Assembly (NCBI GenBank): GCA_044222185.1
Contig: JBGANV010000001.1
Coordinates: 1,088,001-1,152,000 of the forward strand
Direction of reading: 5' to 3'
DNA: 64,000 nt
Origin: Planctomycetota bacterium
GTDB lineage: Bacteria; Planctomycetota; GCA-002687715; CAIWVZ01
Positions within the stretch are counted from its first letter, which is position 1. Every line of letters begins with the position of its first letter. Below, one piece after another: positions 7,780 through 29,438 of the stretch. The notes below the pieces were generated by a model. It had not been told where the DNA came from. It worked only from the letters and a program-made list of their open reading frames with translations, and did no database searches. The position numbers were made by a program, and so were the translations under genes.

Positions 7780-8991
7780 TCACGCCGCGTAGAACTCGTA
7801 TCGCTCGAGCTGGTCCTGGTCGATGACCTTGGCCACGAAGTAGGCCTTCCAGCCGAGGTGCCCCTTCTGGCCCAGCTTGTCAGCCGAGTCGGGGGTGTTG
7901 ATGTTCCGCACCATCGCCGTGACGGACTGACCCTTCAGCTTCGTCACGCCGAACGCGCGCTGACCGAACACCGGCATGATCTGCACGGTGTTGGTCGTGA
8001 ACGTGCCGCCCGACGTGTAGGCCGCGTTGCCGGCGCGACCCGTCGTCAGGGTCGAGTCGGTGTAGAGCGCGAAGGTCGTCGACGACAGCTGGTCGACGTA
8101 GTACGTCCCGTTCGCGTTCGTGTTGCCGCCGACACCCGAGATGGTGACGACGTCGCCGTCGACCAGGCCGTGGGCCGCCGAGGTCGTGATCACGATCGGC
8201 GTGGCGTTCGTGGCGCCCGTGATCGTGCCCGTTACCGGCGTCGACACGTAGCCGGTCGTCGACATCACGAACCGGATCGAGTCGTACTTGCCCACCTCGT
8301 TCGGGAACGTGGCGTTCCCGGCCTGGTAGGAGTCGACCTTCTGAACGCCGGTCGTGCCCTTGATGTTCTCCCACATCTGCGGGGTGACGAACGCGATGTA
8401 GGCCGGCAGGCCCACCACCGTTCCGACACCCGTCGACGGGTTGATGAAGCTCGTGACGTAGGGCACGTGCCGCGACTGGAGGTTGCGGATCACCCGGTCC
8501 AGCTTCGTCGTGGAGAACGTCATGGCCGACGTGATCTGGTTGCGAGCCGTCGCCGTGCTCGCGTAGGTCACGTTCGTGCCGGCGAGGACCACCGCCTGGA
8601 TCAGCGCGTCGAACGTCAGGGCCGCTTGGCGCCCCTGGAGCTCGAGCGTCTGGATCGCGTACGGGTCCGGCCCGGTGTCGAGCAGCTTGTCGGTGAACTC
8701 GACGAAGTCGCCGTACTGCCCGATCGTGGCGGTCACTTCGGTGAGCGTCAGGTTCGAGCCCGAGGGCGGCGAACCTTCCGTCAGCGCGGTCGTGGCGGCC
8801 GACAGCTTGCCGAACTGGCGCCAGCTGATCGTCTGCCCCGACTGGCTCGGGATGTCGCGGCCTTCGACCGCGAACGCCCGCAGCCCCAGCCACTGGTGGA
8901 GCGTGTCGATCAGCGTGTCGCTGTAGAACGTGCGGGTGGCAGTCGTGATCTGGTTCAGACCACCACCGGAACCGATGGATTGAGCAGCCAT
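7780..8991 (-). CDS. Major capsid protein, N4-gp56 family, with inserted decoration domain
   Basis: TISWRQFGKL...ALTEGSPP...TEVTATIGQYGDFVEFTD and C-terminal DKLGQKGHLGWKA motifs. Confidence 0.9.
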   Translation of the reverse strand: MAAQSIGSGGGLNQITTATRTFYSDTLIDTLHQWLGLRAFAVEGRDIPSQSGQTISWRQFGKLSAATTALTEGSPPSGSNLTLTEVTATIGQYGDFVEFTDKLLDTGPDPYAIQTLELQGRQAALTFDALIQAVVLAGTNVTYASTATARNQITSAMTFSTTKLDRVIRNLQSRHVPYVTSFINPSTGVGTVVGLPAYIAFVTPQMWENIKGTTGVQKVDSYQAGNATFPNEVGKYDSIRFVMSTTGYVSTPVTGTITGATNATPIVITTSAAHGLVDGDVVTISGVGGNTNANGTYYVDQLSSTTFALYTDSTLTTGRAGNAAYTSGGTFTTNTVQIMPVFGQRAFGVTKLKGQSVTAMVRNINTPDSADKLGQKGHLGWKAYFVAKVIDQDQLERYEFYAA

Positions 8992-9757: not shown

Positions 9758-11341
9758 CTACGCGAACGGAGCAGGGCTAGCCCCCTGCTGATTCGGCGCG
9801 GAGAGTATCACGACGCGCTGCTGAAGCTGCTGCAGCGTGAGCTTCGCGAGTTCGTCAGCGACGGCCTTCTTCTTCTCCTCGGAGACGTCGCCCATGATCG
9901 TCAGCGCGATGCGCGTGAGCATGGTTCGCAGGAAGGTCTCGGAGTCGGCGAACCACTCCTTCGTGTTCCCGAACTGATCGATGAGCTCGTTGATCTCATC
10001 GTCGGTGAACTTCGCCGGGTAACGCACGGTTCCCGCGAACACCTTCGTGTCAGGCGGGGGCGGCGTGGCCGAAAGCCGCCGCGCCACGAGCTCCAGAATC
10101 GCCCAGTGCCCAGCCTGGAACCAGCTCGCGAGCTTCGAAAGCAGTCGAGCCTCCGTGTTGGAGAATCGAGACTTCTTCGCGGTCCCGCTCTCGGGCGTGC
10201 TCGTCTGCTCGAACATGCCGGTCGGGTCCGCGCCCGCCTGGCGGAACCCGTTCAGGTTCTTGTTCTCGACGGCCTTCATCGTCAGCTCGAAGCCGTCCGA
10301 TGGCGTCGACGCATACTCGAAGCTCTCGTTGTCCTCGGGGTTGAGCACGATCGCGACTGCCGGATCGCGGATGACCTCGGACACAAGGCGCTTCGTCTTC
10401 AGCACCTGGGCCGGGATGTTGTGCACGTAGCGCGAGAAGTCGCCCTGGCTGGCCTCGTTGAACGCGGAGATGTCCGCGCGGACGGTGCCCATGAGCATCG
10501 GCGACGCCCAGAGCGGGTGCTGCGGGTCGCCGAGCCAAGCGATCGGAACGCACCCGCAGCCGTGGGGCACGGCCGCCTGCACCTGCGGCTCCTCGATGTT
10601 GTTCTCGAATGCGTAGAGCTGGTCGATGGTGATCGAGAAGTAGTCGTAGCCGGGCATCTCCTTGAACCCGGCCCGGTACACCGTGACGTTCGCACGATCG
10701 ACGACCAGCCATTCGACCTTCGGTACACGTTTCCCGAGCACCGACTGCTCGCTGATGATCCGCGTGAGCACGACCCACTCCGGTCGCGTCGACCGGTCGA
10801 GCTGCCAGTTGGTGATCTCCTCGACCTGGTAAGCCACCAGGCGCGGCGCCCACGGGATCCCGTTTCGCTTCAGGAAGTCCATGGACTTGTCGGTGCTCGC
10901 TCCGAGCAGCGTCATCTGTTCCGGCGTCCGCTGCTCCATGTCGACGAGGACACCGACGCCCCCCATGCCGACCACGTCCGGGGCCTGGTTCTTGACGAAC
11001 TCGAATAGGGCGGTGCCTTGGCCGTCCGTGTCCTTCGACCAGGCCTCGATGTCGACCTTCGAGCCCCTGGTGTCGTAGGTCACCTCGATCGGGTTCTCGA
11101 AGATGGCGCCCGTGAAACGCTCGATGATGCCGGCCGTGACGCCAGCGAACTCGGAAAGGCGCACCCGCGTGGCGTAGTGGTGGTCCTTCTCGAAGTTGCC
11201 GCGGATCAGGTACTCCCGCTTCGTGGCCTCCTCGTTCAACGCGCCTCGGACGGCACGGATCTTCGGCCAGTTGTCGCGGCCTGTCATGCGCGCGTACCAG
11301 GGGTGGCGCGAAAGGAGGAACGCCTTCACGTCCGCGGTCAT
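9758..11341 (-). CDS. Portal protein
   Basis: ~527 aa directly after TerL (ATGA overlap); DTDGQGT...GGVGVLVD, HGCGCVPI and ESGTAK motifs. Confidence 0.85.
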   Translation of the reverse strand: MTADVKAFLLSRHPWYARMTGRDNWPKIRAVRGALNEEATKREYLIRGNFEKDHHYATRVRLSEFAGVTAGIIERFTGAIFENPIEVTYDTRGSKVDIEAWSKDTDGQGTALFEFVKNQAPDVVGMGGVGVLVDMEQRTPEQMTLLGASTDKSMDFLKRNGIPWAPRLVAYQVEEITNWQLDRSTRPEWVVLTRIISEQSVLGKRVPKVEWLVVDRANVTVYRAGFKEMPGYDYFSITIDQLYAFENNIEEPQVQAAVPHGCGCVPIAWLGDPQHPLWASPMLMGTVRADISAFNEASQGDFSRYVHNIPAQVLKTKRLVSEVIRDPAVAIVLNPEDNESFEYASTPSDGFELTMKAVENKNLNGFRQAGADPTGMFEQTSTPESGTAKKSRFSNTEARLLSKLASWFQAGHWAILELVARRLSATPPPPDTKVFAGTVRYPAKFTDDEINELIDQFGNTKEWFADSETFLRTMLTRIALTIMGDVSEEKKKAVADELAKLTLQQLQQRVVILSAPNQQGASPAPFA

Positions 11342-12648
11342 CGACTCCAACCTCTGAGGACCTCGAGATCCGGCGCCCGAAACGCGGAGGGCCGGTGCCT
11401 GCGGTGGAGATAGTAGCCCGCGGCCTCAAGTGCGTGCGTGCGCTTGGGATCCTCCTTGTCGACGACGCCCGGCTTCTTCCACACGCACTGCTCGCAGTCG
11501 TCGATGAGCAACTCGCACGCGGGATCGACATAGGCACGGACCTCGCCGGCGCCGTTCATGAACCGCGCGTTCGTCGCGTTGATCCGGTCCACGATCGGAG
11601 GTGCGTCCTTCGGCACGTCGTCGTCGACGCGGCTCCCGAAGTACTTCCCAAAGGCTTCGAGGAGCATCGCGTAGTAGGTGCGACCGGTCTGCGCTGTGCG
11701 CCCGTGGCCGCTTGCGTCGCCGAACAGCGTGACTCGCCCAGGGTGACTCCCGTATTTCGCCCCGACGGCGTCGGCCACGTGGTAGACGTTCGCGTGCGGC
11801 AGGGCGAACTCGTCCAGGAAGTGGGTCTCCGTCCCGCCGGCCTTGCACGCGATCTCCTGCGCGACGACGCAGAGCAGCGGATTCACGTTGAAGTCGTGGC
11901 ACAGGAACAGCGGCAGGTCCGGGTTGTACTCCAGCTTCCGAACGTGCCGCAGTCGGTCGAACTGCCCGACCGCACGAGCACCGGCGAGGTTGAGGAACTC
12001 GCCGTCCATCTCCTGCTTCAGCAGCTGCGGGTCGTACCCGTGGATCAGCGACGGGACGTAGTCGGATGGCAGCGAGAGGTTGTCGATGGTGCGGGCGCGG
12101 ATCAGCCGGTGGTTCGGGGACGGGCGCTTGACGAACTCCTCCCAGACGTGGTCGTAGCCGTTCGGCGTCGTCCCCCAGAAGACGCGAGGGCGATCGCAGT
12201 GCTTCCCACGCATGCGGCCGCGCATGACCTGCACGGCCTTCTTGGGTGCGTCGCGCACCTCGTCAGCCCACCAGCTGTCGACCTCCATGCCGCGCAGCCG
12301 GTTGTAGTTCTCGGTCGACCGGACGAGAATTCGCCCGAGCGCACCGCCGTCGAGCAGGAAGATGCGTTTCGAGCTGCGCCACTCCGCGTGGATGTCGAGC
12401 GCTCCACAGACCTCGAAGAGCGCGGGAAGGATCGTGTCCTCGAGCTGCGTGTAGCTGTTGCCCGTGGCCAGGTGGACGCCTGCCGGGAACTGCGACGCCC
12501 TGGAGACGATCCAAAAGGCGCCGGTCCGGGTCTTCCCGCCTCCGAGCCCGGTGACCATGGCGACCCACGTGAACTGCTCAAGTGACTCGATCGCAGCGAG
12601 TTGGTGCGGGTAGAGGTCGACGAACGCCTCGTTCGCGGCCTGAATCAA
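11338..12648 (-). CDS. terL: Terminase large subunit
   Basis: LYPHQ adenine motif, Walker A GLGGGKT, Walker B WWADE, TTP coupling motif, nuclease HDFNVNP...GDASG...HALEA. Confidence 0.95.
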   Translation of the reverse strand: MIQAANEAFVDLYPHQLAAIESLEQFTWVAMVTGLGGGKTRTGAFWIVSRASQFPAGVHLATGNSYTQLEDTILPALFEVCGALDIHAEWRSSKRIFLLDGGALGRILVRSTENYNRLRGMEVDSWWADEVRDAPKKAVQVMRGRMRGKHCDRPRVFWGTTPNGYDHVWEEFVKRPSPNHRLIRARTIDNLSLPSDYVPSLIHGYDPQLLKQEMDGEFLNLAGARAVGQFDRLRHVRKLEYNPDLPLFLCHDFNVNPLLCVVAQEIACKAGGTETHFLDEFALPHANVYHVADAVGAKYGSHPGRVTLFGDASGHGRTAQTGRTYYAMLLEAFGKYFGSRVDDDVPKDAPPIVDRINATNARFMNGAGEVRAYVDPACELLIDDCEQCVWKKPGVVDKEDPKRTHALEAAGYYLHRRHRPSAFRAPDLEVLRGWSR

Positions 12649-15337: not shown

Positions 15338-16627
15338 CTACCCGCTCTCTTCCTGTGCAGGCTCCCGCGCCCGGGCATTCCTGCGCTTGGGAAGCTCATC
15401 GATGGCTTGTTCCCGGGCCCGCTGGGAGGCCTCCTCGATGTTCAGCCCGAAGCAATCCGCTGCGACGGGCAGAATACGCTCCGCGTGTCCCGGGTCGACG
15501 ATCCCGAACGCCAGGTCGAGCACGAGGGCCCGGAGCTCGCGCGGCTTCAGCTCCTCGAGGCTCGCTCGCGCGACGGGCGATGGGATCCCCCATTGCGCGA
15601 GGACCTCGATCGCCGAGGGAGCCGTCGAAAGGCAAAGCGCGAGCGCCACCCAGAACTCGTCCGTGAGTGGCTTCCCTGCGTCCACGCTCTGGACCGCCTG
15701 GTCTCTCACGATCTCGAAGGTGCGGCGCTGCGTGGAGTGCCGCAGATGCGTGCGCCGCTGCGATGGCGTCAACGTCGGGCGCCGTGGAGTCCTGGTCGGC
15801 TCCTGCGCCGATCCCGAGACCCTCAGCGTCTCCGCCGCGGTCTTCGCCGCGTAGCAGACCGGGTCCACGCAGAGATTGTGGCCCTGCTCAGCGTCGAACA
15901 GCGAGAAGATCCGGTCCGCCCGCTTCGGGCACGAGCTGCACGGCCCCACGCCGGGCGTGATGTCGTCCTTCTCCGTGTCGAACGTGGCGTCATCGAGGGG
16001 CTTCAGGACGTTCCGCCGGATCCGCTGGCTCGCATCCGCGACGGAGACGGGTTCGCCGGACGAGACGACCTCGCCGAGAACCAGGCGCTGACCGTCCTCG
16101 GTCGGCATCCGGGCGACCAGCAGCGCGACTGCTGCGGTCATCCTGCCGGCCAGGAACGGTGGCCGCGCGTCCTCGATCAGCGACGTGAGCTGCAGCCGGC
16201 GGAAGACGTAGGCCCGCGACTTCGCCACCATCGCCGCGATCTCGTCGACGGACTTGCCGTGCTCCTCGCGGAGGATTCGGTAGCTCCGCGCCTCGTCGAG
16301 CGGATGGAGCTCATCCCGCTGCAGGTTCTCGGTCACCTGCACGGCGAGGACAGCGTCGGGAGCGTGGCGCGGCCAGACATCGCACGGAACCAGGGTCAGG
16401 CCGGCCTGCCGGGCCGCCATCCAGCGACGCTCGCCCGCGATGATGTCCCAGGCGTCGCCTCGACCCTCCGCCGGCTGCACGATGATGGGGCTGATCACGC
16501 CGAGCTTCGCGATGCTGCGCGCGAGCTCGGTGATCGATGCGGCATCGATGTATCGCCGCGGATTTCCGGTCGACGGCGCGAGCGCATCGACCGGCAGCAT
16601 GGTGATCTGACGATCGTCCACGGTCAC
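15338..16627 (-). CDS. ParB/Spo0J-family protein with C-terminal Cys motif
   Basis: NPRR...ELARSI...GVISPIIV...IIAGERRWMAA, ENLQRDELHPLDEA, HTH, CSSCPKR...CVDPVCY. Confidence 0.9.
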   Translation of the reverse strand: MTVDDRQITMLPVDALAPSTGNPRRYIDAASITELARSIAKLGVISPIIVQPAEGRGDAWDIIAGERRWMAARQAGLTLVPCDVWPRHAPDAVLAVQVTENLQRDELHPLDEARSYRILREEHGKSVDEIAAMVAKSRAYVFRRLQLTSLIEDARPPFLAGRMTAAVALLVARMPTEDGQRLVLGEVVSSGEPVSVADASQRIRRNVLKPLDDATFDTEKDDITPGVGPCSSCPKRADRIFSLFDAEQGHNLCVDPVCYAAKTAAETLRVSGSAQEPTRTPRRPTLTPSQRRTHLRHSTQRRTFEIVRDQAVQSVDAGKPLTDEFWVALALCLSTAPSAIEVLAQWGIPSPVARASLEELKPRELRALVLDLAFGIVDPGHAERILPVAADCFGLNIEEASQRAREQAIDELPKRRNARAREPAQEESG

Positions 16628-17133
16628 GCCTCCGCGGGAACTTCGTTTGGGACGTCCGCGGCCTGCGCGATCTCCGGAGCGGGCGCCGACGGGGGCGGCG
16701 GCTGCGGGACCGCGGCACCCTGCTCGGGCGGATCGGTCGGCGGCTTCAGAAGCTCTTGGATGATCCCGACCCGCCGGAGCACGAACCCCTTTGCCAGCCG
16801 GTGAGCCTTGTCTGCGATGACGAGCCCGGTGTACTCGTCGAGGAGTTCCTCTGGACACTGCTTCGGCAGCTTCATGACGGACTTGTCACGCTTATCCGCG
16901 GGCTTCTCGAACTCGTCCGCGAGCAGCTTTGCGCGCCGCCCGTCGTAGAACCGAGACGCCTTGCGGCGCGCGTCCGACAGTTCAGACGGCGTGCACATGA
17001 GGGCGTGCCCAGCGTTCTCCGCGAGCAGCCTGATCTCCCCCGTCAACTCGTACGGAATCGACTCGCGCTCCGACTTCGCTTCCGCCGCCGCGGGGGCTTG
17101 GCCCTGCGGCTCTTCGATCTTCTCTTCGCTCAT
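16624..17133 (-). CDS. Hypothetical phage protein
   Basis: 169 aa, RBS GGAGGG, coupled to parB. Confidence 0.65.
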   Translation of the reverse strand: MSEEKIEEPQGQAPAAAEAKSERESIPYELTGEIRLLAENAGHALMCTPSELSDARRKASRFYDGRRAKLLADEFEKPADKRDKSVMKLPKQCPEELLDEYTGLVIADKAHRLAKGFVLRRVGIIQELLKPPTDPPEQGAAVPQPPPPSAPAPEIAQAADVPNEVPAEA

Positions 17134-17160
17134 GGTTTCCCTCCCCAGGGAACTCTCGAT

Positions 17161-17382
17161 TCAGCTCGCGACGCCGCACCAGGTCCCGGACGCCTCATTC
17201 GCGGAGTACGGGACGTCCTCCACCAAGTAGGAGTGGACGGCGCCGCCGTCCATGATCCGGTGCACCACCAGATCCGCGTTGTTGCCCTGGCGAACGAGGA
17301 CAACTTGGCCGGGCAAAGTCAGCCGCCCTTCGTCCGTGTCGAGCGTGTACCGAGCCGGCATTCCGATCTTCGCGTTCCACAT
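17161..17382 (-). CDS. Small hypothetical phage protein
   Basis: MWNAKIGMPARY... 73 aa with GGAGGT RBS. Confidence 0.6.
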   Translation of the reverse strand: MWNAKIGMPARYTLDTDEGRLTLPGQVVLVRQGNNADLVVHRIMDGGAVHSYLVEDVPYSANEASGTWCGVAS

Positions 17383-17401
17383 GCCGCACCTCCGTTTGAG
17401 A

Positions 17402-17885
17402 GCCTGGGTGTCCACGTTGAGAAAGGTGGAGCCATCCCCGCACCGTGCGGTGACGCGCGCCATGAACACCCAGGCCGAAATAGGCCGACCGCGAGTCTTC
17501 GTCGACGCACCGGTCCAGCCGGTTGTCCGCAACATGCGGAAACCGCTCGCGGTCGATGACGACGGCGGGATTCGAACCCGCCTCGTGCTCACTGCACGCG
17601 GTGACAGGAGCGACCCGTCTCCGGCGGCCGTCCTTTGCCGCTTCGTCGTCGAATGGCCGGGCTTCCACCGACCGCAGCGATTTCTCCTCGCCTCTGCGCA
17701 CGCGCCGATGCGATCTCCATGGCATCACGCGATAGCTGTGCGCTTTCATCGGATCGGCGGCGTCGTCCGCCATGGCGTAACCCGCCGATTGAATAGTGCG
17801 GGTGAGGGTGATCCCCGCGTCGGCGCCCGACTTCCCGGAAGGATTCATCCGGGCATGCCACGCTCTTCCGGTCACTGACCGGCAA
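17402..17885 (-). ncRNA. Candidate structured non-coding RNA region (tandem multibranch folds)
   Basis: No credible CDS; three tRNA-sized units closed by 6-10 bp stems, plus many short hairpins. Confidence 0.5.
17557..17632 (-). tRNA. Degenerate tRNA-like element (no readable anticodon)
   Basis: Acceptor GACGGC/GTCGTC, D-like GGAG/CTCC, perfect T-arm GCGGG-TTCGAAT-CCCGC; anticodon arm TCAC/GTGA with a non-canonical 8-nt loop; no CCA. Confidence 0.55.
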
Positions 17886-17919
17886 CCTTCAATGGTGTTT
17901 GATCCAACCAACGATCCCG

Positions 17920-18453
17920 TCACCGTGCCGGCTCCGTCGTCGCGATACTTGGATTCGTGGCGCTGACCTTGAGCAGCGTGTCGCGCACCTTCTCGATTGT
18001 GCCGCCAGCGATCGACTTGATTGGGTTGGCAGTCCAGTCCCGCTCAACAAACTGGGCGACCGTCATCACGCCGGCGTCTGCAAGGATTCTTGCCCGCGCC
18101 GGCCCGACGATGCAGTCCAACGCCAGCTGCATCACGTCCCCACCAACCGCCTGGAGCCTTGGCCGCAGTCTCTCGATCAGCGCGGATGTCCTCTCCTCTT
18201 CGCGCTCCCTCCAGAACGCATTGATCTTCTCTCGCTCCTTCCGATCCCTCTCTTCGATCTGCTCGGAGAAGCCGACCTTCATCAGATCTCGAATTTCGGT
18301 GAGGACATATCGGGTGCTCCGCATCTCCTCAAAGACGTTCTCCAGCAGGCCGACGGTGATCATCTGTAGGAACCTCGGATCGCCAGAGGTGATGCGCCCA
18401 CCACCCCAGCCGAAGCATCCGTGTTTCCATTTGACGAACTCGGATTCCGTCAT
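17920..18453 (-). CDS. Hypothetical phage protein
   Basis: 177 aa, coupled start; C-terminus RARILADAGVMTV...IKSIAGGTIEKV is reminiscent of HhH/alpha-CTD folds. Confidence 0.6.
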   Translation of the reverse strand: MTESEFVKWKHGCFGWGGGRITSGDPRFLQMITVGLLENVFEEMRSTRYVLTEIRDLMKVGFSEQIEERDRKEREKINAFWREREEERTSALIERLRPRLQAVGGDVMQLALDCIVGPARARILADAGVMTVAQFVERDWTANPIKSIAGGTIEKVRDTLLKVSATNPSIATTEPAR

Positions 18454-18620
18454 TTCGCGCTCCCGAACAGTTCCTGCTGCCCATCCATCGTCAGCTCGGC
18501 GTCGACCTCGCGCTCCAGACGCTTCGCCTCGTCGAGCGCAGTCCGGTCCTTCTTGTCGAACCAGCGCTTCTGTGCGTCGCGCAGGCGCTTCACGAGGTCT
18601 CGGAATTCGGCGGTGGTCAT
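18450..18620 (-). CDS. Small helical phage protein ending in QQELF
   Basis: MTTAEFRDLVKRLRDAQKRWF... 56 aa with ATGA overlaps at both ends. Confidence 0.7.
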   Translation of the reverse strand: MTTAEFRDLVKRLRDAQKRWFDKKDRTALDEAKRLEREVDAELTMDGQQELFGSAK

Positions 18621-19018
18621 GCCTGGACCTCGACTTCGAACAGCCCCTGCGCGCCGCGGCACGGGATCGGGGTCGTCAGTGCGCGCGCATTGAACAGGAC
18701 CCACGCAAACCGACCCGCCGAGAAGTCGCCGAAGATCAACTCTCGCCCCGACCAGCACTCAGACTCGACCGGAACGCACCGGTCGATCGTCGCGACCGCA
18801 ACGATGGCGCCGTGAGCCATCGGCGGAAAATCGGCCACCGACTTGAGGATCCTCGCCTCACGAAGCAGCTCGCCGAACATTCCATCGTCGTCCGTCGTCT
18901 TGGACGCGTGGATAGCGATCGGGCCGCGGTACGAGGTCGACCAGCTCCGCGTCTCCACCTTCTTGAGGCCGCACGCAATGAGGTGAGCCCACGGCTGCCA
19001 AATCGAGATGGCTTTCAT
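18617..19018 (-). CDS. ASCH-domain protein
   Basis: MKAISIWQPWAHLIACGLKKVETRSWSTSYRGPIAIHAS, PIPCRGAQGLF. Confidence 0.92.
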   Translation of the reverse strand: MKAISIWQPWAHLIACGLKKVETRSWSTSYRGPIAIHASKTTDDDGMFGELLREARILKSVADFPPMAHGAIVAVATIDRCVPVESECWSGRELIFGDFSAGRFAWVLFNARALTTPIPCRGAQGLFEVEVQA

Positions 19019-19230
19019 CGTGGTGTTCCGTTTGCGAACCGCTCGGGCAGCGGCACTCCGAGCACGTGGTTCCGGAAGCGAGCCTCGACCTCCGCGTCAG
19101 ACGTCGTCTTCTTGACGCACGCATAGCACATGATCGCGCCGCCGCGCCCGTATGGGCGCAGCTCCTTGATCTCTCCGCAGCCATCGCACTGCTGCGGTCC
19201 CTCGGTGGCCACGAACCCTCGCCCGCTCAC
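19015..19230 (-). CDS. Small zinc-finger protein
   Basis: CDGC...ELRPYG...CYAC; coupled GTG start. Confidence 0.65.
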   Translation of the reverse strand: MSGRGFVATEGPQQCDGCGEIKELRPYGRGGAIMCYACVKKTTSDAEVEARFRNHVLGVPLPERFANGTPR

Positions 19231-19820
19231 GCGACGACTCCGACCATCATCGCCTCGCAGATGAGCGCGCACGTCCTCACGTCCGCGAGCGCATCATGCG
19301 CCTGCCCCATCGTCGCGACGCCGAAGTACCTCGCGAGCGTCTCCAGCTGGAAGTTGGCCGGCAGTGCGATCCCGCGCTCGGTGAACCACCAGATCGATCG
19401 CTGGTAGGTGTCGAGCGGGTACCACCAGCACCCAGGCCAGAAGGCGCCGTTCAGCGCCTTGTCCATCATCGTGCGCAGACGTGGACCGTCGAAGCTCGCG
19501 AAGTTGTGACCCGCAAGGCGACACGCGATGTATGGGTTGCCGCGCTTCGAGACGAGCTGCATCCGCGCGTGCCGCTTCAGGAAGACCTGGAACTCGAGGG
19601 CGACGTCTCCCTCTGGCTTCGCGTCCTTCCACCTCTCCGCCGTGTACCCGTTGAGCTTCAATGCCTCGGGGTCGCAGGCCTGCGGCGCGAACTGGATCTT
19701 CCGCTCGAACGCGTCGACCTCCTGCCAGTTCTCGACCGCGATAGCGGCGATCTGGATGTTCGGATGGCGGTCCTCGACCCCGCCGGTCTCGAAGTCCACG
19801 AAGACGGTTCGGTCCTTCAC
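19227..19820 (-). CDS. DEDDh 3'-5' exonuclease (DnaQ-like)
   Basis: VFVDFETGG, AGHNFASFD, AHDALADV. Confidence 0.92.
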   Translation of the reverse strand: MKDRTVFVDFETGGVEDRHPNIQIAAIAVENWQEVDAFERKIQFAPQACDPEALKLNGYTAERWKDAKPEGDVALEFQVFLKRHARMQLVSKRGNPYIACRLAGHNFASFDGPRLRTMMDKALNGAFWPGCWWYPLDTYQRSIWWFTERGIALPANFQLETLARYFGVATMGQAHDALADVRTCALICEAMMVGVVA

Positions 19821-20540: not shown

Positions 20541-21700
20541 GTGGTCACCTCTGCTTCCTTCAGCTTGTGCTCGCGAACCGACGTCGAACGCTTCTTCGTG
20601 GTCCCGTTCAGGGACTCGATCTCGCCCAGGACCTCCCGCTCGAGCTGGGAGATCTTCGCGCCGGTGTTCTGCGCGACGGCGCGCATGGCGCGGTTGATCG
20701 ATGCCTTCGACACGTCGAAGGTCACCGCCTTGTCGGCGATCTCATCGCCGAACTTCTTGCGGATGACGTGAAACGCCACTCCGCCATCGATGATCGTGGT
20801 CTCGCGCTCGCAGGGGCCGAGGCACGAACCGTGGCCGAGGTCGATCGGGGTCGACAGCGCGTACGTGCGCAGCGCCTCGTCGATGCGGTCGGTCGCCATC
20901 TTCAGAGCCTTCAGCGCATGCCATGCGCGCGCGGCCGTCTCGGGCGTCAGCTGGCCGGCGACGATCTCGACCGCATCCCCTGGCTTCTCCGCCAGGGCGC
21001 GCACGAGGTTCGTCTGGGCCGGGCACCACGCGAACGCCGGGCAGTAGCGGCAGTGCGCTCCCGTCGTGAGCTGCTTCGCGCCAGTCCCGATCTTCCCGAG
21101 CAGCTCGGCGAGCTCGCCGGCGAACATGTCGAGGTCGAACGCCTCGATCGTCTCCTGGTCCGCCCAGACCGTTCCGTCGTCCTTGATTCGGACGATCGCG
21201 ATGTGGGCCCGGGAACGGCCGTACGCGAGGCACGCGCAGAGCGCGTAGAAGCGCAGCTGCCAGTTGCGTCGCACAGGGGCGATGTCCGCCCAGCCCGTCT
21301 TGTAGTCGGCGATGACAACCGAATCGACCGTCAGGCCGACCACGTCGGCAGTCCCTGGGATCTCGCCCGGGGCGAGCGTGGCGTAGGCCTCCCGCCGGCT
21401 GAGGCCGCGCCCGATCTCACGGGCCGTGCCAGCAGCCGGGTCGTACGCGAACGCGACCTCCGCGGCGTAGGCGCCAGGGTCGCACGCGGGCAGGCGCCCG
21501 ACGTCGATCGCGGCGCAGGCCGGGCGGTGCTCCGAAGGCACTCGGGCGAGGGCCTCGTCGCGGCCGGCGCTGGTCACGTCCGCGAGGAACGCGTGAACCG
21601 CGGACCCGCGCTCGGAGTACTCCCCGATCGAATCCGCCTGGGGCATCGACACCGACGCCGGGCAGACCGAGATCCGCTGAAGGGATGAGGCGGAAATCAC
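20537..21700 (-). CDS. PD-(D/E)XK Cas4-like exonuclease (DUF2800-like, Fe-S cysteines)
   Basis: SASSLQRISVCPAS, GSAVH, GTADVV...IADYKTG, QLRFYA, HCRYCPAFAWCP. Confidence 0.88.
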   Translation of the reverse strand: MISASSLQRISVCPASVSMPQADSIGEYSERGSAVHAFLADVTSAGRDEALARVPSEHRPACAAIDVGRLPACDPGAYAAEVAFAYDPAAGTAREIGRGLSRREAYATLAPGEIPGTADVVGLTVDSVVIADYKTGWADIAPVRRNWQLRFYALCACLAYGRSRAHIAIVRIKDDGTVWADQETIEAFDLDMFAGELAELLGKIGTGAKQLTTGAHCRYCPAFAWCPAQTNLVRALAEKPGDAVEIVAGQLTPETAARAWHALKALKMATDRIDEALRTYALSTPIDLGHGSCLGPCERETTIIDGGVAFHVIRKKFGDEIADKAVTFDVSKASINRAMRAVAQNTGAKISQLEREVLGEIESLNGTTKKRSTSVREHKLKEAEVTT

Positions 21701-22728
21701 TTCGCACCGCCCTTCAGTGCGGTCTTCTTCTCCATGTAGGCGCGGCTGGCGTCGGCCTTGAGCGCATCCGGCAGCTTCGCAGCTTCGGCGGCCGCGGCCT
21801 TCAGGTCGCCGTCCGTCTTCGCCGCGGCGATCAGATCGAGGACTCGGCGAAGTTCAGGCGGGGTGCCGTCATCCTCGGGCTGGCTCGCTTCGGCGGCAAA
21901 GTCGGTGTGCTCGTCGATCGTCTGCGCCGGGGCCGGTGATGCCGCGGTTGCGGACTGGATGTCGGCGGCGACCATCGACGGCGGCGGCATATCGCCCACG
22001 TCACCGGAGGCATCCACATCGATGACGCGCTCCATCGCGGGTGTCGTCTTGAGCCACTTGTAGAGCGCGCGAACGGCCGTCTTGCAGCACATCTCGGCCG
22101 AGCTGGTGTTCCACGGGTTGTCGTCGCGTTCGTTGAACGTGTGCTGTGGACGCTTGGCGTGGATCTCGTCGACGCTGAGGTATCGGAACACCGGACGCCC
22201 CGTCACCGGGTGCGCGACGGCGTAGGCGCCAACGATCTCGCCGCGCGAACCCATCGCCGGGATGTGCCGCAGCGACGACTCCGTCCCGAGGCGGATCTGG
22301 AAGTCGTCGGCAGCGTGAACGCAGTGCGCCTCGATCCCGCTGTAGAACCCGGAATCGAGGGCGATGTCGATCAGCCCCTTGTAGTCCGGGATCAGCGTCA
22401 CCTTTCCCTTGAACGGGACCAAGTGCGCGCGTCCGCCGGGACCACCTGTGCAGGACAGCCCGAGCTCCGCACAGTTCATGACGGCCGCGTAGAGCGTGGT
22501 GCGGTCGCAGTTGAGCAGGTCTGGATTGCGAACGCACGCCATCACCACCATGCGCGCGAACCGCTTCGGATCCCCAAGCTTCGGCGGAAGCAGTGAAGCG
22601 ATCTGCGTCAACTTCGCGGAGAGTTCCTGTTCGAGCTGCCGGACCTGAACGGAACGCTGTTCGTCTGGCTTCACCACTGCCGAGCCGGTGGACCTGTTCG
22701 CGAACGGACGTGTTGCTGGTGCGTTCAT
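21697..22728 (-). CDS. recT: RecT-family single-strand annealing protein
   Basis: NPDLLNCDRTTLYAAVMNCAELGL, AHLVPFKG...DYKGLIDIA, PW...EMCCKTAVRALYKWL. Confidence 0.92.
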   Translation of the reverse strand: MNAPATRPFANRSTGSAVVKPDEQRSVQVRQLEQELSAKLTQIASLLPPKLGDPKRFARMVVMACVRNPDLLNCDRTTLYAAVMNCAELGLSCTGGPGGRAHLVPFKGKVTLIPDYKGLIDIALDSGFYSGIEAHCVHAADDFQIRLGTESSLRHIPAMGSRGEIVGAYAVAHPVTGRPVFRYLSVDEIHAKRPQHTFNERDDNPWNTSSAEMCCKTAVRALYKWLKTTPAMERVIDVDASGDVGDMPPPSMVAADIQSATAASPAPAQTIDEHTDFAAEASQPEDDGTPPELRRVLDLIAAAKTDGDLKAAAAEAAKLPDALKADASRAYMEKKTALKGGAK

Positions 22729-24990: not shown

Positions 24991-25037
24991 GGTGATTCTT
25001 AATCACCGGGTCCCAGGTTCGAGTCCTGGCGCGGGCA
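24991..25037 (+). pseudogene. 3' half of tRNA-Lys(CTT); prophage right att site
   Basis: GGTGA-TTCTTAA-TCACC anticodon arm, CCAGG-TTCGAGT-CCTGG T-arm, CGCGGGCA acceptor 3' strand; no D-arm or 5' acceptor upstream. Confidence 0.85.
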
Positions 25038-25065
25038 TCGTCTCGACGGTCGACCCGGAAGCGCG

Positions 25066-25912: not shown

Positions 25913-27085
25913 ATGAAAAGGCCTGCATCGACGACGGGTTTCGTCGATGAGGTGGCGCTCGCGATGCCCGACTACGACGGCCGTGAATCGGAGGCTGTCG
26001 GGCAGGTGCTCGCGAGCGGACGGCTCGAGGGCGGTGGTGTGTGGCTCGATCGCTGCGAAAGCGAGCTCCGCGACCGCTTCCCCGGCTGGATCCCCCTCGT
26101 CACGACCTCCTGCACTCACGCCCTCGAGCTCATGCTCATGGCGCACGGAATCGGTCCAGGTGACGAGGTCATCGTTCCCGCGTTCACGTTCACCAGTACG
26201 GCGACGTGCGTGTTACGCCAGGGCGCCCGTCCCGTATTCGCCGACAGCCTGCCGAACCACCCCAACGTCGACCCTGCGGACATCCTGCGGCGCATCACTC
26301 CGCGGACGCGCGCGGTGATCACCGTGCACTACGGCGGAGTCGCCTGCGACCTGAGCCCGATCCGTTCGCACCTCGCCTCCCGCGGGATCCTCGAGTTCGA
26401 AGATGCCGCCCATGCATTCGGTTCGAGTTGGAATGGCAAGCCATGCGGGACGCTCGGTGCGGCCGCGTGCTTCTCGTTTCATGGGACGAAGAACATCACC
26501 TGTGGCGAGGGCGGAGCACTCCTCCTGCGCAATGGCGACACTGCGGACGTCGCGCTGGTCGGCCGCGAGATGGGAACGGACCGCGCGCTCTACCGCATGG
26601 GCCGCATCTTCCGCTACACCTGGCGCGCAGCGGGGTCGTCGTTCCTTCCGCCCGAGATCTCGATGGCAATCCTCTCCGTCCAGCTCAGCAAGTCCGCCGA
26701 GATCACGAGCCGGCGCCGCGCCTGTTTTGCCCGCTACGACGATGCCCTCGCAGGCCTCGAAGCCGAAGGGCGGCTCGTCCGGCCGCAGATCGACCGCGCC
26801 CGGATGGAGCACAACGCGCACATCTACTTCGTGCTGTTTCCTGACACGGCAACCCGAGCGGCGTGTCATGAGCGCATGCGGCGCGAGGGGATCAGCACGG
26901 CCGTTCACTACGACGCGCTGGATCGCACGCCATTCGGCCGGACGCTCTGCAATCCCGATCATCGCCCCTGCGTGAACGCAGCTGCGTTCTCGGATCGACT
27001 GCTCCGCCTCCCGATTCACTCCCGCCTCGATGAACGCGCCCAGGCCCGCGTCGTCGATGCGCTCACCCAGTCGTTGAGCGGATGA
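25913..27085 (+). CDS. wecE: DegT/DnrJ sugar aminotransferase, WecE/RffA-like
   Basis: TSCTHALE, VHYGGVACD, EDAAH, FSFHGTKNITCGEGG, HNAHIYF. Confidence 0.85.
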   Translation: MKRPASTTGFVDEVALAMPDYDGRESEAVGQVLASGRLEGGGVWLDRCESELRDRFPGWIPLVTTSCTHALELMLMAHGIGPGDEVIVPAFTFTSTATCVLRQGARPVFADSLPNHPNVDPADILRRITPRTRAVITVHYGGVACDLSPIRSHLASRGILEFEDAAHAFGSSWNGKPCGTLGAAACFSFHGTKNITCGEGGALLLRNGDTADVALVGREMGTDRALYRMGRIFRYTWRAAGSSFLPPEISMAILSVQLSKSAEITSRRRACFARYDDALAGLEAEGRLVRPQIDRARMEHNAHIYFVLFPDTATRAACHERMRREGISTAVHYDALDRTPFGRTLCNPDHRPCVNAAAFSDRLLRLPIHSRLDERAQARVVDALTQSLSG

Positions 27086-28404
27086 CCGACTTGCCGCCCA
27101 CGACCGAGGTTCCGGAGAGGTCCGTCGATCAGCGCAAGCCGACCCCGACCTCGGGCCGTCGTAGGACGCCCCGCGCGACGGATGCTCCTGCCGGGCTGTC
27201 GACGGCATTCCTCACGCAGCCGTCCGTGCAGGCGGTCCGCTTCCTCCAGAAACTGGTGCTCGTGAACTTCCTGCGACCACCGGAGCTCGGCGAGGCGAAT
27301 TTCGCGGGACTCGTCACCTTCGCATGGTCGCAAGCAGCCGCCTGGGGAATCGACCAGTTCGCCGTCGTCAGTCCGGAGTTCGGTTCGGGACTCGTCCGAT
27401 CGCTTCAGCGTCGCCTCGTCCAGGGCGGGTTGCTCGTCACCATGATCGCAGCCGCAGCCTCTTTCTCGGCCCCTCTCTTCGAAGGAAACGCCGAGCTGCG
27501 ATCCATGCTGCTCGCGCTCGCCCCGGTCGTGTTCATCTCCAACCTCGGAGTCATTCCCACCGCATTGCTGGTGCGCCACCAGAAGTACCGGCGGCTTTTC
27601 GCCGTGGACTTCGGCGCCGCAGCGCTGCAGGCGACCGCAACGATCCTGGCAGTGGAGCTCGGCATGGGTTCCTGGGCCGTGGTCGTGGGCTGGTACGTGA
27701 GCCAGATCGTCACGACGTTCGGGGCCATGGCACTGTCGCGAGACCTCGTTCCGCGCGACCCGGAGCCCGAACCCGACCTCACCCAGCCGTTGGCGACGGG
27801 CCGCCACTTCATGGGTGCGACGCTCTCCGCATTCGCGTCCGAGCGGTTCGACTCCGTCGTCGTCCGGAAGATGTTCGGCGCCGGTGCATTCGGCGCGTAC
27901 GACATGGCGCTGCACCTCTCGCAGTCGTTCGTCAACTACGCGGCGAACCTCGCCCAGCGCTTCCTGTTCCCGACTCTCGCCGCGGCGGCGCGGGCCGAGC
28001 GCAGAGAGAGCGTGCTGAAAGCACTGATTCCCAAGGCCCTGCTGCTCGTCGTACCTGCCTCCGGTCTTCTGGCCGTCTGCGCGAGCGTCTTCGTGACCAG
28101 GCAGTTCGACGGCGAATGGCTGTCGGTCAAGCCGATCGTCGTCGTCTCCTGCTTCACCGCCGGCGCGAGGTGCTTCGACCTGCTTGGAATGGCCGTGTTG
28201 AAGTCCTCCGGGCAGGCGCGGCCGGTCTTCTACCTCGAGATCCTCAAGTCCGTGGTCCTTGCCGTGGCGGTCGGGATCGGCCTGATGGGCGGCGTGATCG
28301 GCGTCGCGTACGCGGTCCTCAGCGCGCGGGCAGTCGGCGCGGCGATGACCTGGTACTCGGCGCGCCGGGTGACGAGTCTCCCGTCCGGCCTCGTCGAAAC
28401 GTGA
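27082..28404 (+). CDS. Oligosaccharide flippase (Wzx-like)
   Basis: Multi-TM protein between aminotransferase and GT; GMGSWAVVVG, FGAGAFGAY. Confidence 0.8.
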   Translation: MTDLPPTTEVPERSVDQRKPTPTSGRRRTPRATDAPAGLSTAFLTQPSVQAVRFLQKLVLVNFLRPPELGEANFAGLVTFAWSQAAAWGIDQFAVVSPEFGSGLVRSLQRRLVQGGLLVTMIAAAASFSAPLFEGNAELRSMLLALAPVVFISNLGVIPTALLVRHQKYRRLFAVDFGAAALQATATILAVELGMGSWAVVVGWYVSQIVTTFGAMALSRDLVPRDPEPEPDLTQPLATGRHFMGATLSAFASERFDSVVVRKMFGAGAFGAYDMALHLSQSFVNYAANLAQRFLFPTLAAAARAERRESVLKALIPKALLLVVPASGLLAVCASVFVTRQFDGEWLSVKPIVVVSCFTAGARCFDLLGMAVLKSSGQARPVFYLEILKSVVLAVAVGIGLMGGVIGVAYAVLSARAVGAAMTWYSARRVTSLPSGLVET

Positions 28405-29438
28405 ACGAACCCGGCGGCCGCGAAAGCACTCCGTTCCCCGGTCCACCTTCGGCGGACCGAGGCGACGATGGGACCGTCTCCGTGATCATTCCCACCTTCA
28501 ACGGAGGCGCCTTCATCCGGGAGACGATCGCCAGCGTCCTCGCTCAGACGTCGCCCCCGCTCGAGGTCATCGTCTGCGACGATGGTTCCACGGACGACAC
28601 GCCACGGCTCCTGCGCGGTCTGGACGCCCGCGTCCGCGTCCTGGAGCAGACGAACCGCGGAGTCTCTGCGGCGAGGAACCTCGGCGCGCATCACGCCACC
28701 GGACGATATCTCGCATTCCTGGATCACGACGACCTCTGGGAGCCCGACTTCCTCGCGACTCAGGTCGCCGCACTCCGGGCCGACCGTCGCCTTGGGCTCG
28801 TCTACTCCGATTCCTGGATCATCGACTCCAATGGGCGATCACACGGGACGCGATCACGGTTTCTCCAGTACCGAGACGGCAACGTCTTCCGAGATCTGCT
28901 GCGCGGGAACTTCATCCCCATCGAGACGATGCTGGTGCCGAGCGACGTCTTCCGCAGCATCGGCCGTTTCGACGAAACGTTGCGATACTGCGAGGACTTC
29001 GACCTCTGCCTGAGGATCACACGCCGCCATCCCGTCCGGTTCGATCGGCGCCCACTCGCCCGCTACCGCATCCACGACCGCAACCTCACCCACGATCGCG
29101 AAAAGCTCGTCGCCGAGTGGCTCCTGATTCTGCAACGGCTCGTGCAGGAGCCGGACCTCGCGGGCGCCGAGCGGATCATCGTCGGTGAGGAACTGGCGCG
29201 GCGACACCTGGATGCAGCCTGGCATGCCATGCGACGCGGCGACCTCGCGTCCGCCGACGCCGCCATCGCGCGCTCCCCGGGCGCGAGGGATCTCCGCCTC
29301 GCGGCGCGAGTGCGCGCCGCGAGGATCGCCCTCGGGATGGTTCCGTCAGGCTGGAGGTCGCGACTGATGCAGTGGTTGCCGCACAAGCGGACCTACGGCG
29401 TCCCCACCGCGCGCGATCGCCAACGCGCGACGCCATAG
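28401..29438 (+). CDS. Glycosyltransferase family 2
   Basis: VSVIIPTFN, DDGSTD, NRGVSAARN, FLDHDDLW, CEDFDL. Confidence 0.92.
   Translation: MNEPGGRESTPFPGPPSADRGDDGTVSVIIPTFNGGAFIRETIASVLAQTSPPLEVIVCDDGSTDDTPRLLRGLDARVRVLEQTNRGVSAARNLGAHHATGRYLAFLDHDDLWEPDFLATQVAALRADRRLGLVYSDSWIIDSNGRSHGTRSRFLQYRDGNVFRDLLRGNFIPIETMLVPSDVFRSIGRFDETLRYCEDFDLCLRITRRHPVRFDRRPLARYRIHDRNLTHDREKLVAEWLLILQRLVQEPDLAGAERIIVGEELARRHLDAAWHAMRRGDLASADAAIARSPGARDLRLAARVRAARIALGMVPSGWRSRLMQWLPHKRTYGVPTARDRQRATP

Follow-up and report, generated by a model that had tools for sequence, protein, structure and literature searches.

What lies in the 537 nucleotides (nt) that separate two genes of a tightly packed phage operon in a planctomycete genome, and has it a function as DNA, RNA or protein? 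The window analysed here, a 64,000-nt stretch of a Planctomycetota bacterium (assembly GCA_044222185.1, contig JBGANV010000001.1, positions 1,088,001 to 1,152,000), carries the early operon of a prophage, and the original prediction had read a gap of about 520 nt in that operon as an array of processed, transfer RNA (tRNA)-sized RNAs named units A to D, or as one large non-coding RNA (ncRNA). On the open reading frame (ORF) map this spacer is the largest intergenic space of the minus-strand early operon, in which neighbouring genes mostly overlap by a few bases or sit 27-65 nt apart; a second apparent gap, at 21700-22725, is occupied by a 405-amino-acid (aa) ORF. The spacer contains a well-defined tRNA-like cloverleaf (unit A) and a conserved module upstream of it, and it bears no mark of coding constraint. 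The reading that we favour, at about an even chance of being right, is that it descends from a phage tRNA region, of which it would be a non-coding relict or derivative, and in which an inherited module is followed by a non-decoding cloverleaf that is probably processed from the operon transcript.

Unit A folds on the minus strand into a cloverleaf of five arms, which bears out its description as tRNA-like, with a minimum free energy (MFE) of -52.1 kcal/mol, a structure that accounts for 74% of the ensemble and a z-score of -3.96. Its outer half is that of a canonical tRNA: a 7-bp acceptor is joined directly to a 5-bp T stem, the T loop is of the UUCRANY type, the G53-C61 pair is present, and the discriminator base is an A at 17557, with CCA not encoded. 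The body is a different matter. Position 8 is A, not U; the D arm has a 5-bp stem and an 8-nt loop that starts with A and contains GG; there is a 5-bp variable arm; and the anticodon-type arm, a stem of 9-10 bp with an A.A mismatch closed by a 5-nt loop, departs from the canonical form. Opening the last pair of this stem gives a 7-nt loop with U33, but with a pyrimidine at position 37. With an anticodon stem of that length, a 5-nt loop and a pyrimidine at 37, unit A has probably lost the ability to decode.

The Rfam and tRNA-finder searches suggested with the original prediction gave a divided answer. At standard thresholds they find nothing, ARAGORN with default settings reporting no tRNA gene in the window and Rfam no match in it at gathering score. 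At a relaxed 95% threshold, ARAGORN makes an 86-nt tRNA-Ala(cgc)-like call with a poor acceptor at unit A, and unit A is the only match of the tRNA clan in the window, its best score, 24.6 bits with tRNA-Sec (RF01852), falling short of the gathering score of 47 (E = 0.027 in a 1-kb search). Judged by that gathering score, a UCA anticodon and an 8/5 acceptor/T architecture, a tRNA-Sec was rejected: the Rfam alignment contains two acceptor mismatches and leaves out the anticodon arm, and UCA is absent. A transfer-messenger RNA (tmRNA) was also rejected: ARAGORN -m at an 80% threshold and Rfam find none, and the host tmRNA lies elsewhere. A loose T-arm pattern occurs at 102 sites genome-wide, 47 of them in called tRNAs or the tmRNA; among the 55 others, unit A is the only one with a fully Watson-Crick acceptor (7/7) at tRNA distance. 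Nor is unit A a copy of a host tRNA, its resemblance to the 58 host tRNAs being confined to the T arm, or an attachment (att) site, the att of the prophage being tRNA-Lys and the T arm being all that unit A has in common with host tRNAs.

A 21-mer made up of the T arm and the 3' acceptor strand recurs in four species of the genome-contig collection, each time around an interior unrelated to that of unit A: in two Bryobacterales tRNA-Glu genes, one odd Thermoflexales tRNA and one Promicromonospora site. The Thermoflexales tRNA (L015, 2500-2590, minus strand) is 91 nt long and is given a four-letter anticodon by ARAGORN; it shares its acceptor strands and T arm exactly with unit A, and its interior holds a duplicated CTGCAAAA motif. 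The Bryobacterales metagenome-assembled genomes carry tandem arrays of 32 and 24 tRNA genes with a spacing of a few bases (L016, 4944-7957; L017, 336-2464), among them a 92-nt tRNA-Ile(tat) and a tRNA-Cys(aca). Separately, ARAGORN calls four identical copies of an 88-nt 'tRNA-Ser(tga)' (C2:10-97, C5:10-97, C5:73231-73318 and C6:790270-790357), two of them at the same offset from a contig start, and these look like a repeated element with a tRNA-Ser-like gene in it that seemingly breaks the assembly.

The module lies about 146 nt from the cloverleaf and came to light through protein translations. A HMMER search with the 180-aa spacer translation against 1.84 billion proteins (E <= 0.001) returned three matches, of which P0004, a repetitive 1340-aa protein, was dropped. 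The two others, P0005 (133 aa, from one ENA contig of 11.5 kb) and P0006 (310 aa, from three Logan contigs), are singletons and are spurious ORF translations from other assemblies. Their shared block corresponds to window positions 17795-17890, with 28 of 38 residues identical in P0006, and further on both have in common with the window 'FDD' and then 'AGS(T/N)PAVV', which in the window are the in-frame readings of the 5' acceptor strand and of the T arm plus the 3' acceptor strand, respectively. The seven residues that follow FDD are VAQSVER in P0005, EAAKDGR in the window and GAGTVTG in P0006. Host tRNAs translated from position 7 read VAQSVEH (tRNA-Lys) and VAQLVER (tRNA-Gly), each identical to P0005 at six of seven residues, and VAQ(S/L)VE(H/R/Q) is found in five of the top seven of the 58 host tRNAs compared, the other two departing at residues 5-7. 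This likeness suggests that the D arm behind P0005 is canonical, and the P0005 lineage seems to hold a canonical tRNA at the place equivalent to the spacer; the interior is non-canonical in the window and P0006 lineages.

As DNA, the module has one counterpart, in L038, a phage-like metagenome contig of 1528 nt (about 57% GC by eye) that was the sole contig returned by a scan with the three-sequence alignment and whose last ORF is the N-terminus of P0005. The flanks of the module do not align between L038 and the window, and the L038 gene directly upstream of it matches replication-initiator PHROGs. A 33-pair RNAalifold consensus leaves all 66 cells paired, with four one-sided changes that keep pairing (G.U to G-C or A-U), and several of its G.U pairs exist on the minus strand only. 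No family of Rfam 15 matches the module in the window or in L038; no literature search was made for it. Wider searches were largely empty: the spacer DNA has no homologue by blastn in phage records or in plasmids, and in 60 relatives (1.4-kb query) gives only a 40-nt T-arm-like match in G009, without an ARAGORN tRNA; pattern, protein and alignment queries of IMG/VR and a search with the ORF of the genome-contig collection found no homologue. P0005 against 400 Planctomycetota genomes gave 19 marginal matches, the best of which (L019) proved to be ordinary coding sequence; in the 5.8-billion protein set neither P0005 nor the antisense 56-aa ORF found anything new; and a covariance model of the module (R1) recovered only itself in its own genome and 150 relatives.

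The spacer is non-coding. A 242-aa minus-strand ORF (17195-17923) had been held open in the original prediction as the possible real product, and codon usage, shuffles and substitutions relative to L038 lead us to reject it; that it, or its first ~180 codons, encodes a protein is very improbable. Its appeal is that the frame is open through the entire spacer, from a GTG start in a GTGA overlap with the upstream TGA, that two database proteins match it (E = 5e-8 and 7e-6), that the module and T arm lie in the same reading frame in all three lineages, and that codon-usage log-odds, trained on 25 confident window genes and amounting to 0.2-0.5 bits per codon in real genes, reach +0.14 to +0.28 across 17440-17620 in the ORF frame and its antisense partner. 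Yet from 17620 to 17920 the same log-odds are about zero or negative in all six frames, 25.6% of 2000 dinucleotide-shuffled versions of the spacer contain a frame open for at least 178 codons, and stops show no depletion (21, with 17.3 expected). The last 188 nt of the ORF overlap the well-supported 73-aa gene out of frame, and the third-position GC (GC3) signal there belongs to the frame of the latter (GC3 = 0.88). The ORF matches nothing in Pfam or PHROG, and a collection of gene-called proteins includes those of the 73-aa and 169-aa genes and none of the eight spacer ORFs; the 'peptides' that it shares with the database proteins are translations of the T arm and acceptor stem. Relative to L038, the module shows two synonymous and six non-synonymous codon changes in the ORF frame, codon positions 1/2/3 take 6/1/5 of the 12 substitutions, and no frame on either strand has a synonymous excess; the constraint on the module is therefore not on a protein. 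A 143-aa ORF that would extend the 73-aa gene at its N-terminus was rejected too, its codon log-odds being at or below zero upstream of 17382.

The prophage, of about 45 kb, belongs to a genome of 7.08 Mb (66.8% GC, 93.8% complete). According to PHROG and Pfam matches all its genes lie on the minus strand, and it is bounded by two direct copies, identical over 50 nt, of the 3' part of tRNA-Lys(CTT), which span from the anticodon stem to 3 nt beyond the tRNA 3' end; host genes lie to the right of about 25.0 kb, and the left end of the prophage and any integrase fall outside the window. In addition to the genes in the table, it encodes two further exonucleases and an HNH endonuclease, also on the minus strand. 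This gene content and the att repeat place the spacer in the early replication/recombination operon of the prophage, the location originally proposed. The genes around the spacer are orphans: the 177-aa protein has itself as its sole match among 5.8 billion proteins, with a weak HHH_5 match under the cut-off, and the 73-aa and 169-aa proteins each form a single-member cluster in the protein collection. The spacer DNA (65% GC) is single-copy in its genome, matching only itself, and a REP-like host repeat was dropped on that ground. Contig pieces of 100% identity from three of the four metagenome runs compared (X4, X6 and X7) bear its sequence out. These pieces cover 17143-17490 and 17527-17858 without a difference or an indel, leaving 17491-17526 and 17859-17919 uncovered, and a frameshift artefact is therefore unlikely at the covered positions; a joint from 17581 to 17919 (23-nt side) in the runs was set aside as a T-arm-sized match from another organism.

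Table. Coordinates of the spacer, its elements and the surrounding prophage features (window positions unless a contig is given).
Feature	Position	Strand	Description
Spacer	17383-17919	-	537 nt between the 177-aa and 73-aa genes; ORF map
Unit A	17650 to 17557	-	94-nt five-arm cloverleaf
Unit A acceptor	17644-17650 / 17558-17564	-	GACGACG/CGTCGTC, 7/7 Watson-Crick
Unit A T arm	17565-17581	-	Canonical; GCGGG-TTCGAAT-CCCGC
Conserved module	17797-17903	-	86 of 96 ungapped columns identical to L038 1423-1528
Module hairpins (RNAalifold)	17868-17882; 17817-17863; 17800-17816	-	6 bp; possible long bulged hairpin; small hairpin
Unit B	17487-17554	-	Lineage-specific multibranch hairpin; closing stem 17487-17495/17546-17554, 9 bp extending to 10 bp
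Unit C	17402-17475	-	Long irregular hairpin; 10-bp closing stem 17402-17411/17466-17475
Upstream 177-aa gene	17920-18453	-	Orphan; TGA at 17920-17922
Downstream 73-aa gene	17161-17382	-	Orphan; ATG 17380-17382; GGAGG 17389-17393, 6 nt upstream
169-aa gene	16624-17133		Orphan
Major head protein	7780-8991	-	PHROG/Pfam
Portal	9758-11350	-	PHROG/Pfam
Large terminase	11338-12648	-	PHROG/Pfam
ParB-like protein	15338-16858	-	PHROG/Pfam
ASCH	18617-19018	-	PHROG/Pfam
RNase T-type exonuclease	19227-19820	-	PHROG/Pfam
Left repeat copy	C1:1067993-1068042		Inside intact host tRNA-Lys(CTT), itself C1:1067967-1068039
Right attachment site	24991-25040	+	50-nt exact copy of the tRNA-Lys(CTT) 3' part

In the reading that we favour, the spacer would be part of the minus-strand transcript of the early operon and would contain two inherited parts, namely the module of about 105 nt, about 90% of whose sequence is kept in other phage-like lineages, and a cloverleaf derived from a tRNA. 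The latter keeps a perfect 12-bp acceptor/T minihelix with its T loop, the part of a tRNA that is recognised by RNase P, by 3' tRNA-processing enzymes and by the CCA-adding enzyme, and would have lost decoding as its body left the tRNA norm. RNase P and 3' processing would then cut the cloverleaf out of the transcript, parting the 177-aa and 73-aa cistrons, and the excised RNA would persist as a stable tRNA-like molecule, the site thus acting as a processing and stabilising point; alternatively, the cloverleaf may be a tRNA in the course of decay. A bolder version, which we regard as somewhat unlikely, joins the module and the downstream tRNA-type minihelix into a hitherto undescribed two-part phage ncRNA unit, in which RNase P would define the 3' end of the module RNA and free a tRNA mimic unable to decode. 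From phage to phage, the interior of the mimic could then differ, for instance so as to bind or divert a host tRNA-directed enzyme or a defence nuclease.

The data are equally compatible with a decaying pseudogene, with the module as a DNA site and with an array of several RNAs, and the last of these is the polycistronic array of processed small RNAs (units A to D and further stems, as regulators or decoys for anticodon nucleases) or single large new ncRNA that was originally proposed. All the stems named in that proposal are present, including the 10-bp and 9-bp closing stems, their inner hairpins, the ATCGGCGG/CCGCCGAT stem and the pair 17703-17714/17748-17759, and three of the units do stand back to back, with long closing stems and only 2-11 nt between them. 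Part of the spacer is, moreover, conserved elsewhere, and its z-score (-2.80 on the minus strand, -2.33 on the plus strand) is the lowest of the 25 windows tested, none of the 24 controls (536 nt, minus strand; +0.98 to -2.53) reaching it and two lying under -2.3. The expected excess of folding over shuffled sequence is there, but only marginally, and at the local scale the array does not rise above background: a uniform Lfoldz scan of the minus strand of the window (span 120) yields 145 merged loci at z <= -3 (a density of 1.21 per 537 nt), of which 31 reach z <= -3.9, while the three loci with z <= -3 in the spacer compare with nine of 120 bins of 537 nt that hold at least three. Structures with at least three hairpin loops number 40 in the scan, most of them inside genes, and 195 inverted repeats (9-nt seed, within 110 nt) occur in the 64 kb. 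Unit C (z = -4.10) is one of the 31 stronger loci, unit B folds better on the plus strand (-3.60) than on the minus strand (-2.14), and unit D (-1.13), 17690-17795 (-1.10) and 17800-17885 (-1.26) all stay above -1.3; B, C and D are not unusual against the window. Units B and C have no counterpart in P0005 or P0006, which show no similarity past the cloverleaf, and most of the stretch from module to cloverleaf has none either, only the short 'SV..RP' residues aligning with unit D. The units share no motif, the T loop occurs in A only, and no Rfam family is matched. The stems are real and mostly within expectation for 66.8% GC DNA, only unit A carries a specific signal, and an array of equivalent RNAs is in our view quite unlikely; B, C and D are best read as GC-rich hairpins peculiar to this lineage, within the 5' leader of the 73-aa gene, unit C, whose closing stem extends to 13 nt at 92%, ending 8 nt upstream of the Shine-Dalgarno sequence of that gene. 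Elsewhere in the window, the strongest local folds are 28421-28514 (minus strand, z = -5.60), which adjoins the end of a host gene (27082-28404), and 15541-15624 (minus strand, z = -5.02), inside the ParB-like gene.

Two alternatives remain. The spacer could be a neutral relic, a dead tRNA gene with a module left over from phage mosaic recombination and no present function, an outcome to which we give a minor share of belief. The non-canonical body of the cloverleaf, the inferred distance from acceptor to T arm, which differs in all three lineages (51, 63 and 123 nt), the unexceptional fold of the module and the orphan genes around it are all as a relic would have them. A relic accords poorly, however, with an acceptor and T arm free of mismatches in a cloverleaf whose fold is so well defined, with a module that has stayed about 90% identical while its flanks diverged past alignment, and with 537 nt of dead spacer, which is unusual in an overlap-coupled phage operon. 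Alternatively, the module could be a DNA site (for instance an origin of replication, a site of primosome assembly or single-strand initiation, or an operator or promoter) and the tRNA-like part incidental, which we consider unlikely. It lies within the replication/recombination block, in L038 it sits directly downstream of a replication-initiator-like helix-turn-helix gene, and its sequence is conserved without a convincing RNA fold; on the other side, the spacer shows no iterons or origin repeats, its direct repeats being chance-size two-copy families, and no AT-rich stretch. Neither a sigma-70 promoter nor an intrinsic terminator was found in 16500-19000, in a scan that does not cover planctomycete or phage promoters, and the G.U pairs of the consensus fold, which exist only on the transcribed strand, also speak against a role as DNA.

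Several observations weigh against the interpretation of the spacer as a processed derivative of a phage tRNA region. Its transcription and processing are predicted from the sequence. The tRNA-Sec score of unit A corresponds to E = 1.7 at window scale, and the Thermoflexales tRNA has the 5' acceptor strand of unit A as well, with the Bryobacterales tRNA-Glu genes one base off; since such identity of acceptor and T arm occurs in unrelated tRNAs, by itself it argues only weakly for homology. For P0005 and P0006 the evidence consists of protein translations, and the frame common to module and T arm in three of three lineages, with a chance of about 1 in 9, slightly favours coding. For the module there are just two DNA sequences, one of them cut at a contig end; its consensus contains no double change and derives from the same two-sequence alignment, and its fold, with z-scores of -0.94 (window) and -0.69 (L038), is no better than that of shuffled sequence, the MFE structures of the two differing. 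The module may act as DNA rather than as RNA.

Precedents exist for parts of the arrangement. In the tRNA region of phage T4, small stable RNAs (species 1 and 2) are co-transcribed and co-processed with tRNAs and freed by the tRNA-processing enzymes; the spacer would be alike in placing a candidate structured non-tRNA RNA beside a tRNA-type element, with a predicted processing. Like phage tRNA genes, unit A is tRNA-shaped, lies in a phage operon and is co-oriented with the genes; unlike them, it is missed by ARAGORN at default settings and by Rfam at gathering score, stands singly rather than in an array and, with its anticodon stem of 9-10 bp and loop of 5 nt, should not decode. Phage tRNAs and anticodon nucleases are the subject of PMC10264068 and PMC10865867, and theta ribozymes that of PMC10879173. 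Another parallel is the tRNA-like domain of the bacterial Y RNA YrlA, which has T and D arms, is a substrate of RNase P and of CCA addition, does not decode and also occurs in phages; YrlA is encoded beside a Ro60 (TROVE) gene, a closed stem-loop takes the acceptor position, and its long Ro-binding helix takes the position of the anticodon arm (PMC4201824). Unit A would likewise be a non-decoding mimic, but with an open acceptor and normal tRNA topology, and no TROVE gene (PF05731) was matched in the 93.8%-complete genome, the control genomes being positive.

A eukaryotic analogue is offered by MALAT1 and mascRNA, in which a tRNA-like structure follows another RNA; cleavage there by RNase P generates the 3' terminus of the upstream transcript and sets free a short tRNA-like RNA that does not decode. 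The analogy is functional only, without homology, and unit A would be the site of cleavage in it; the match of the MALAT1/MEN-beta family (RF01684) on the spacer, at 18.1 bits and E = 1.1, is at chance level. The original prediction had also pointed to P1 C4, P4 CI and GOLLD/ROOL, phage-borne structured RNAs of which some are processed by RNase P or lie near tRNAs. That link found no support: Rfam returns nothing on the spacer at E <= 10 beyond five weak matches, none of which joins it to these families, which we presume to be in the database.

Phage tRNA genes are common, and non-decoding tRNA derivatives in phage operons have rarely been documented; the value of this locus hinges on the processing of the cloverleaf and the role of the module. 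If neither element is functional, the locus is a snapshot of a decaying phage tRNA gene, and a caution that GC-rich hairpin arrays are no evidence of RNA genes. A processed cloverleaf would be an example, from a virus of bacteria, of a tRNA-like structure that punctuates and stabilises an operon transcript, or of a tRNA mimic. The module, which Rfam lacks and which phage-like contigs without other relationship have in common, would be a candidate for a new phage RNA or DNA element.

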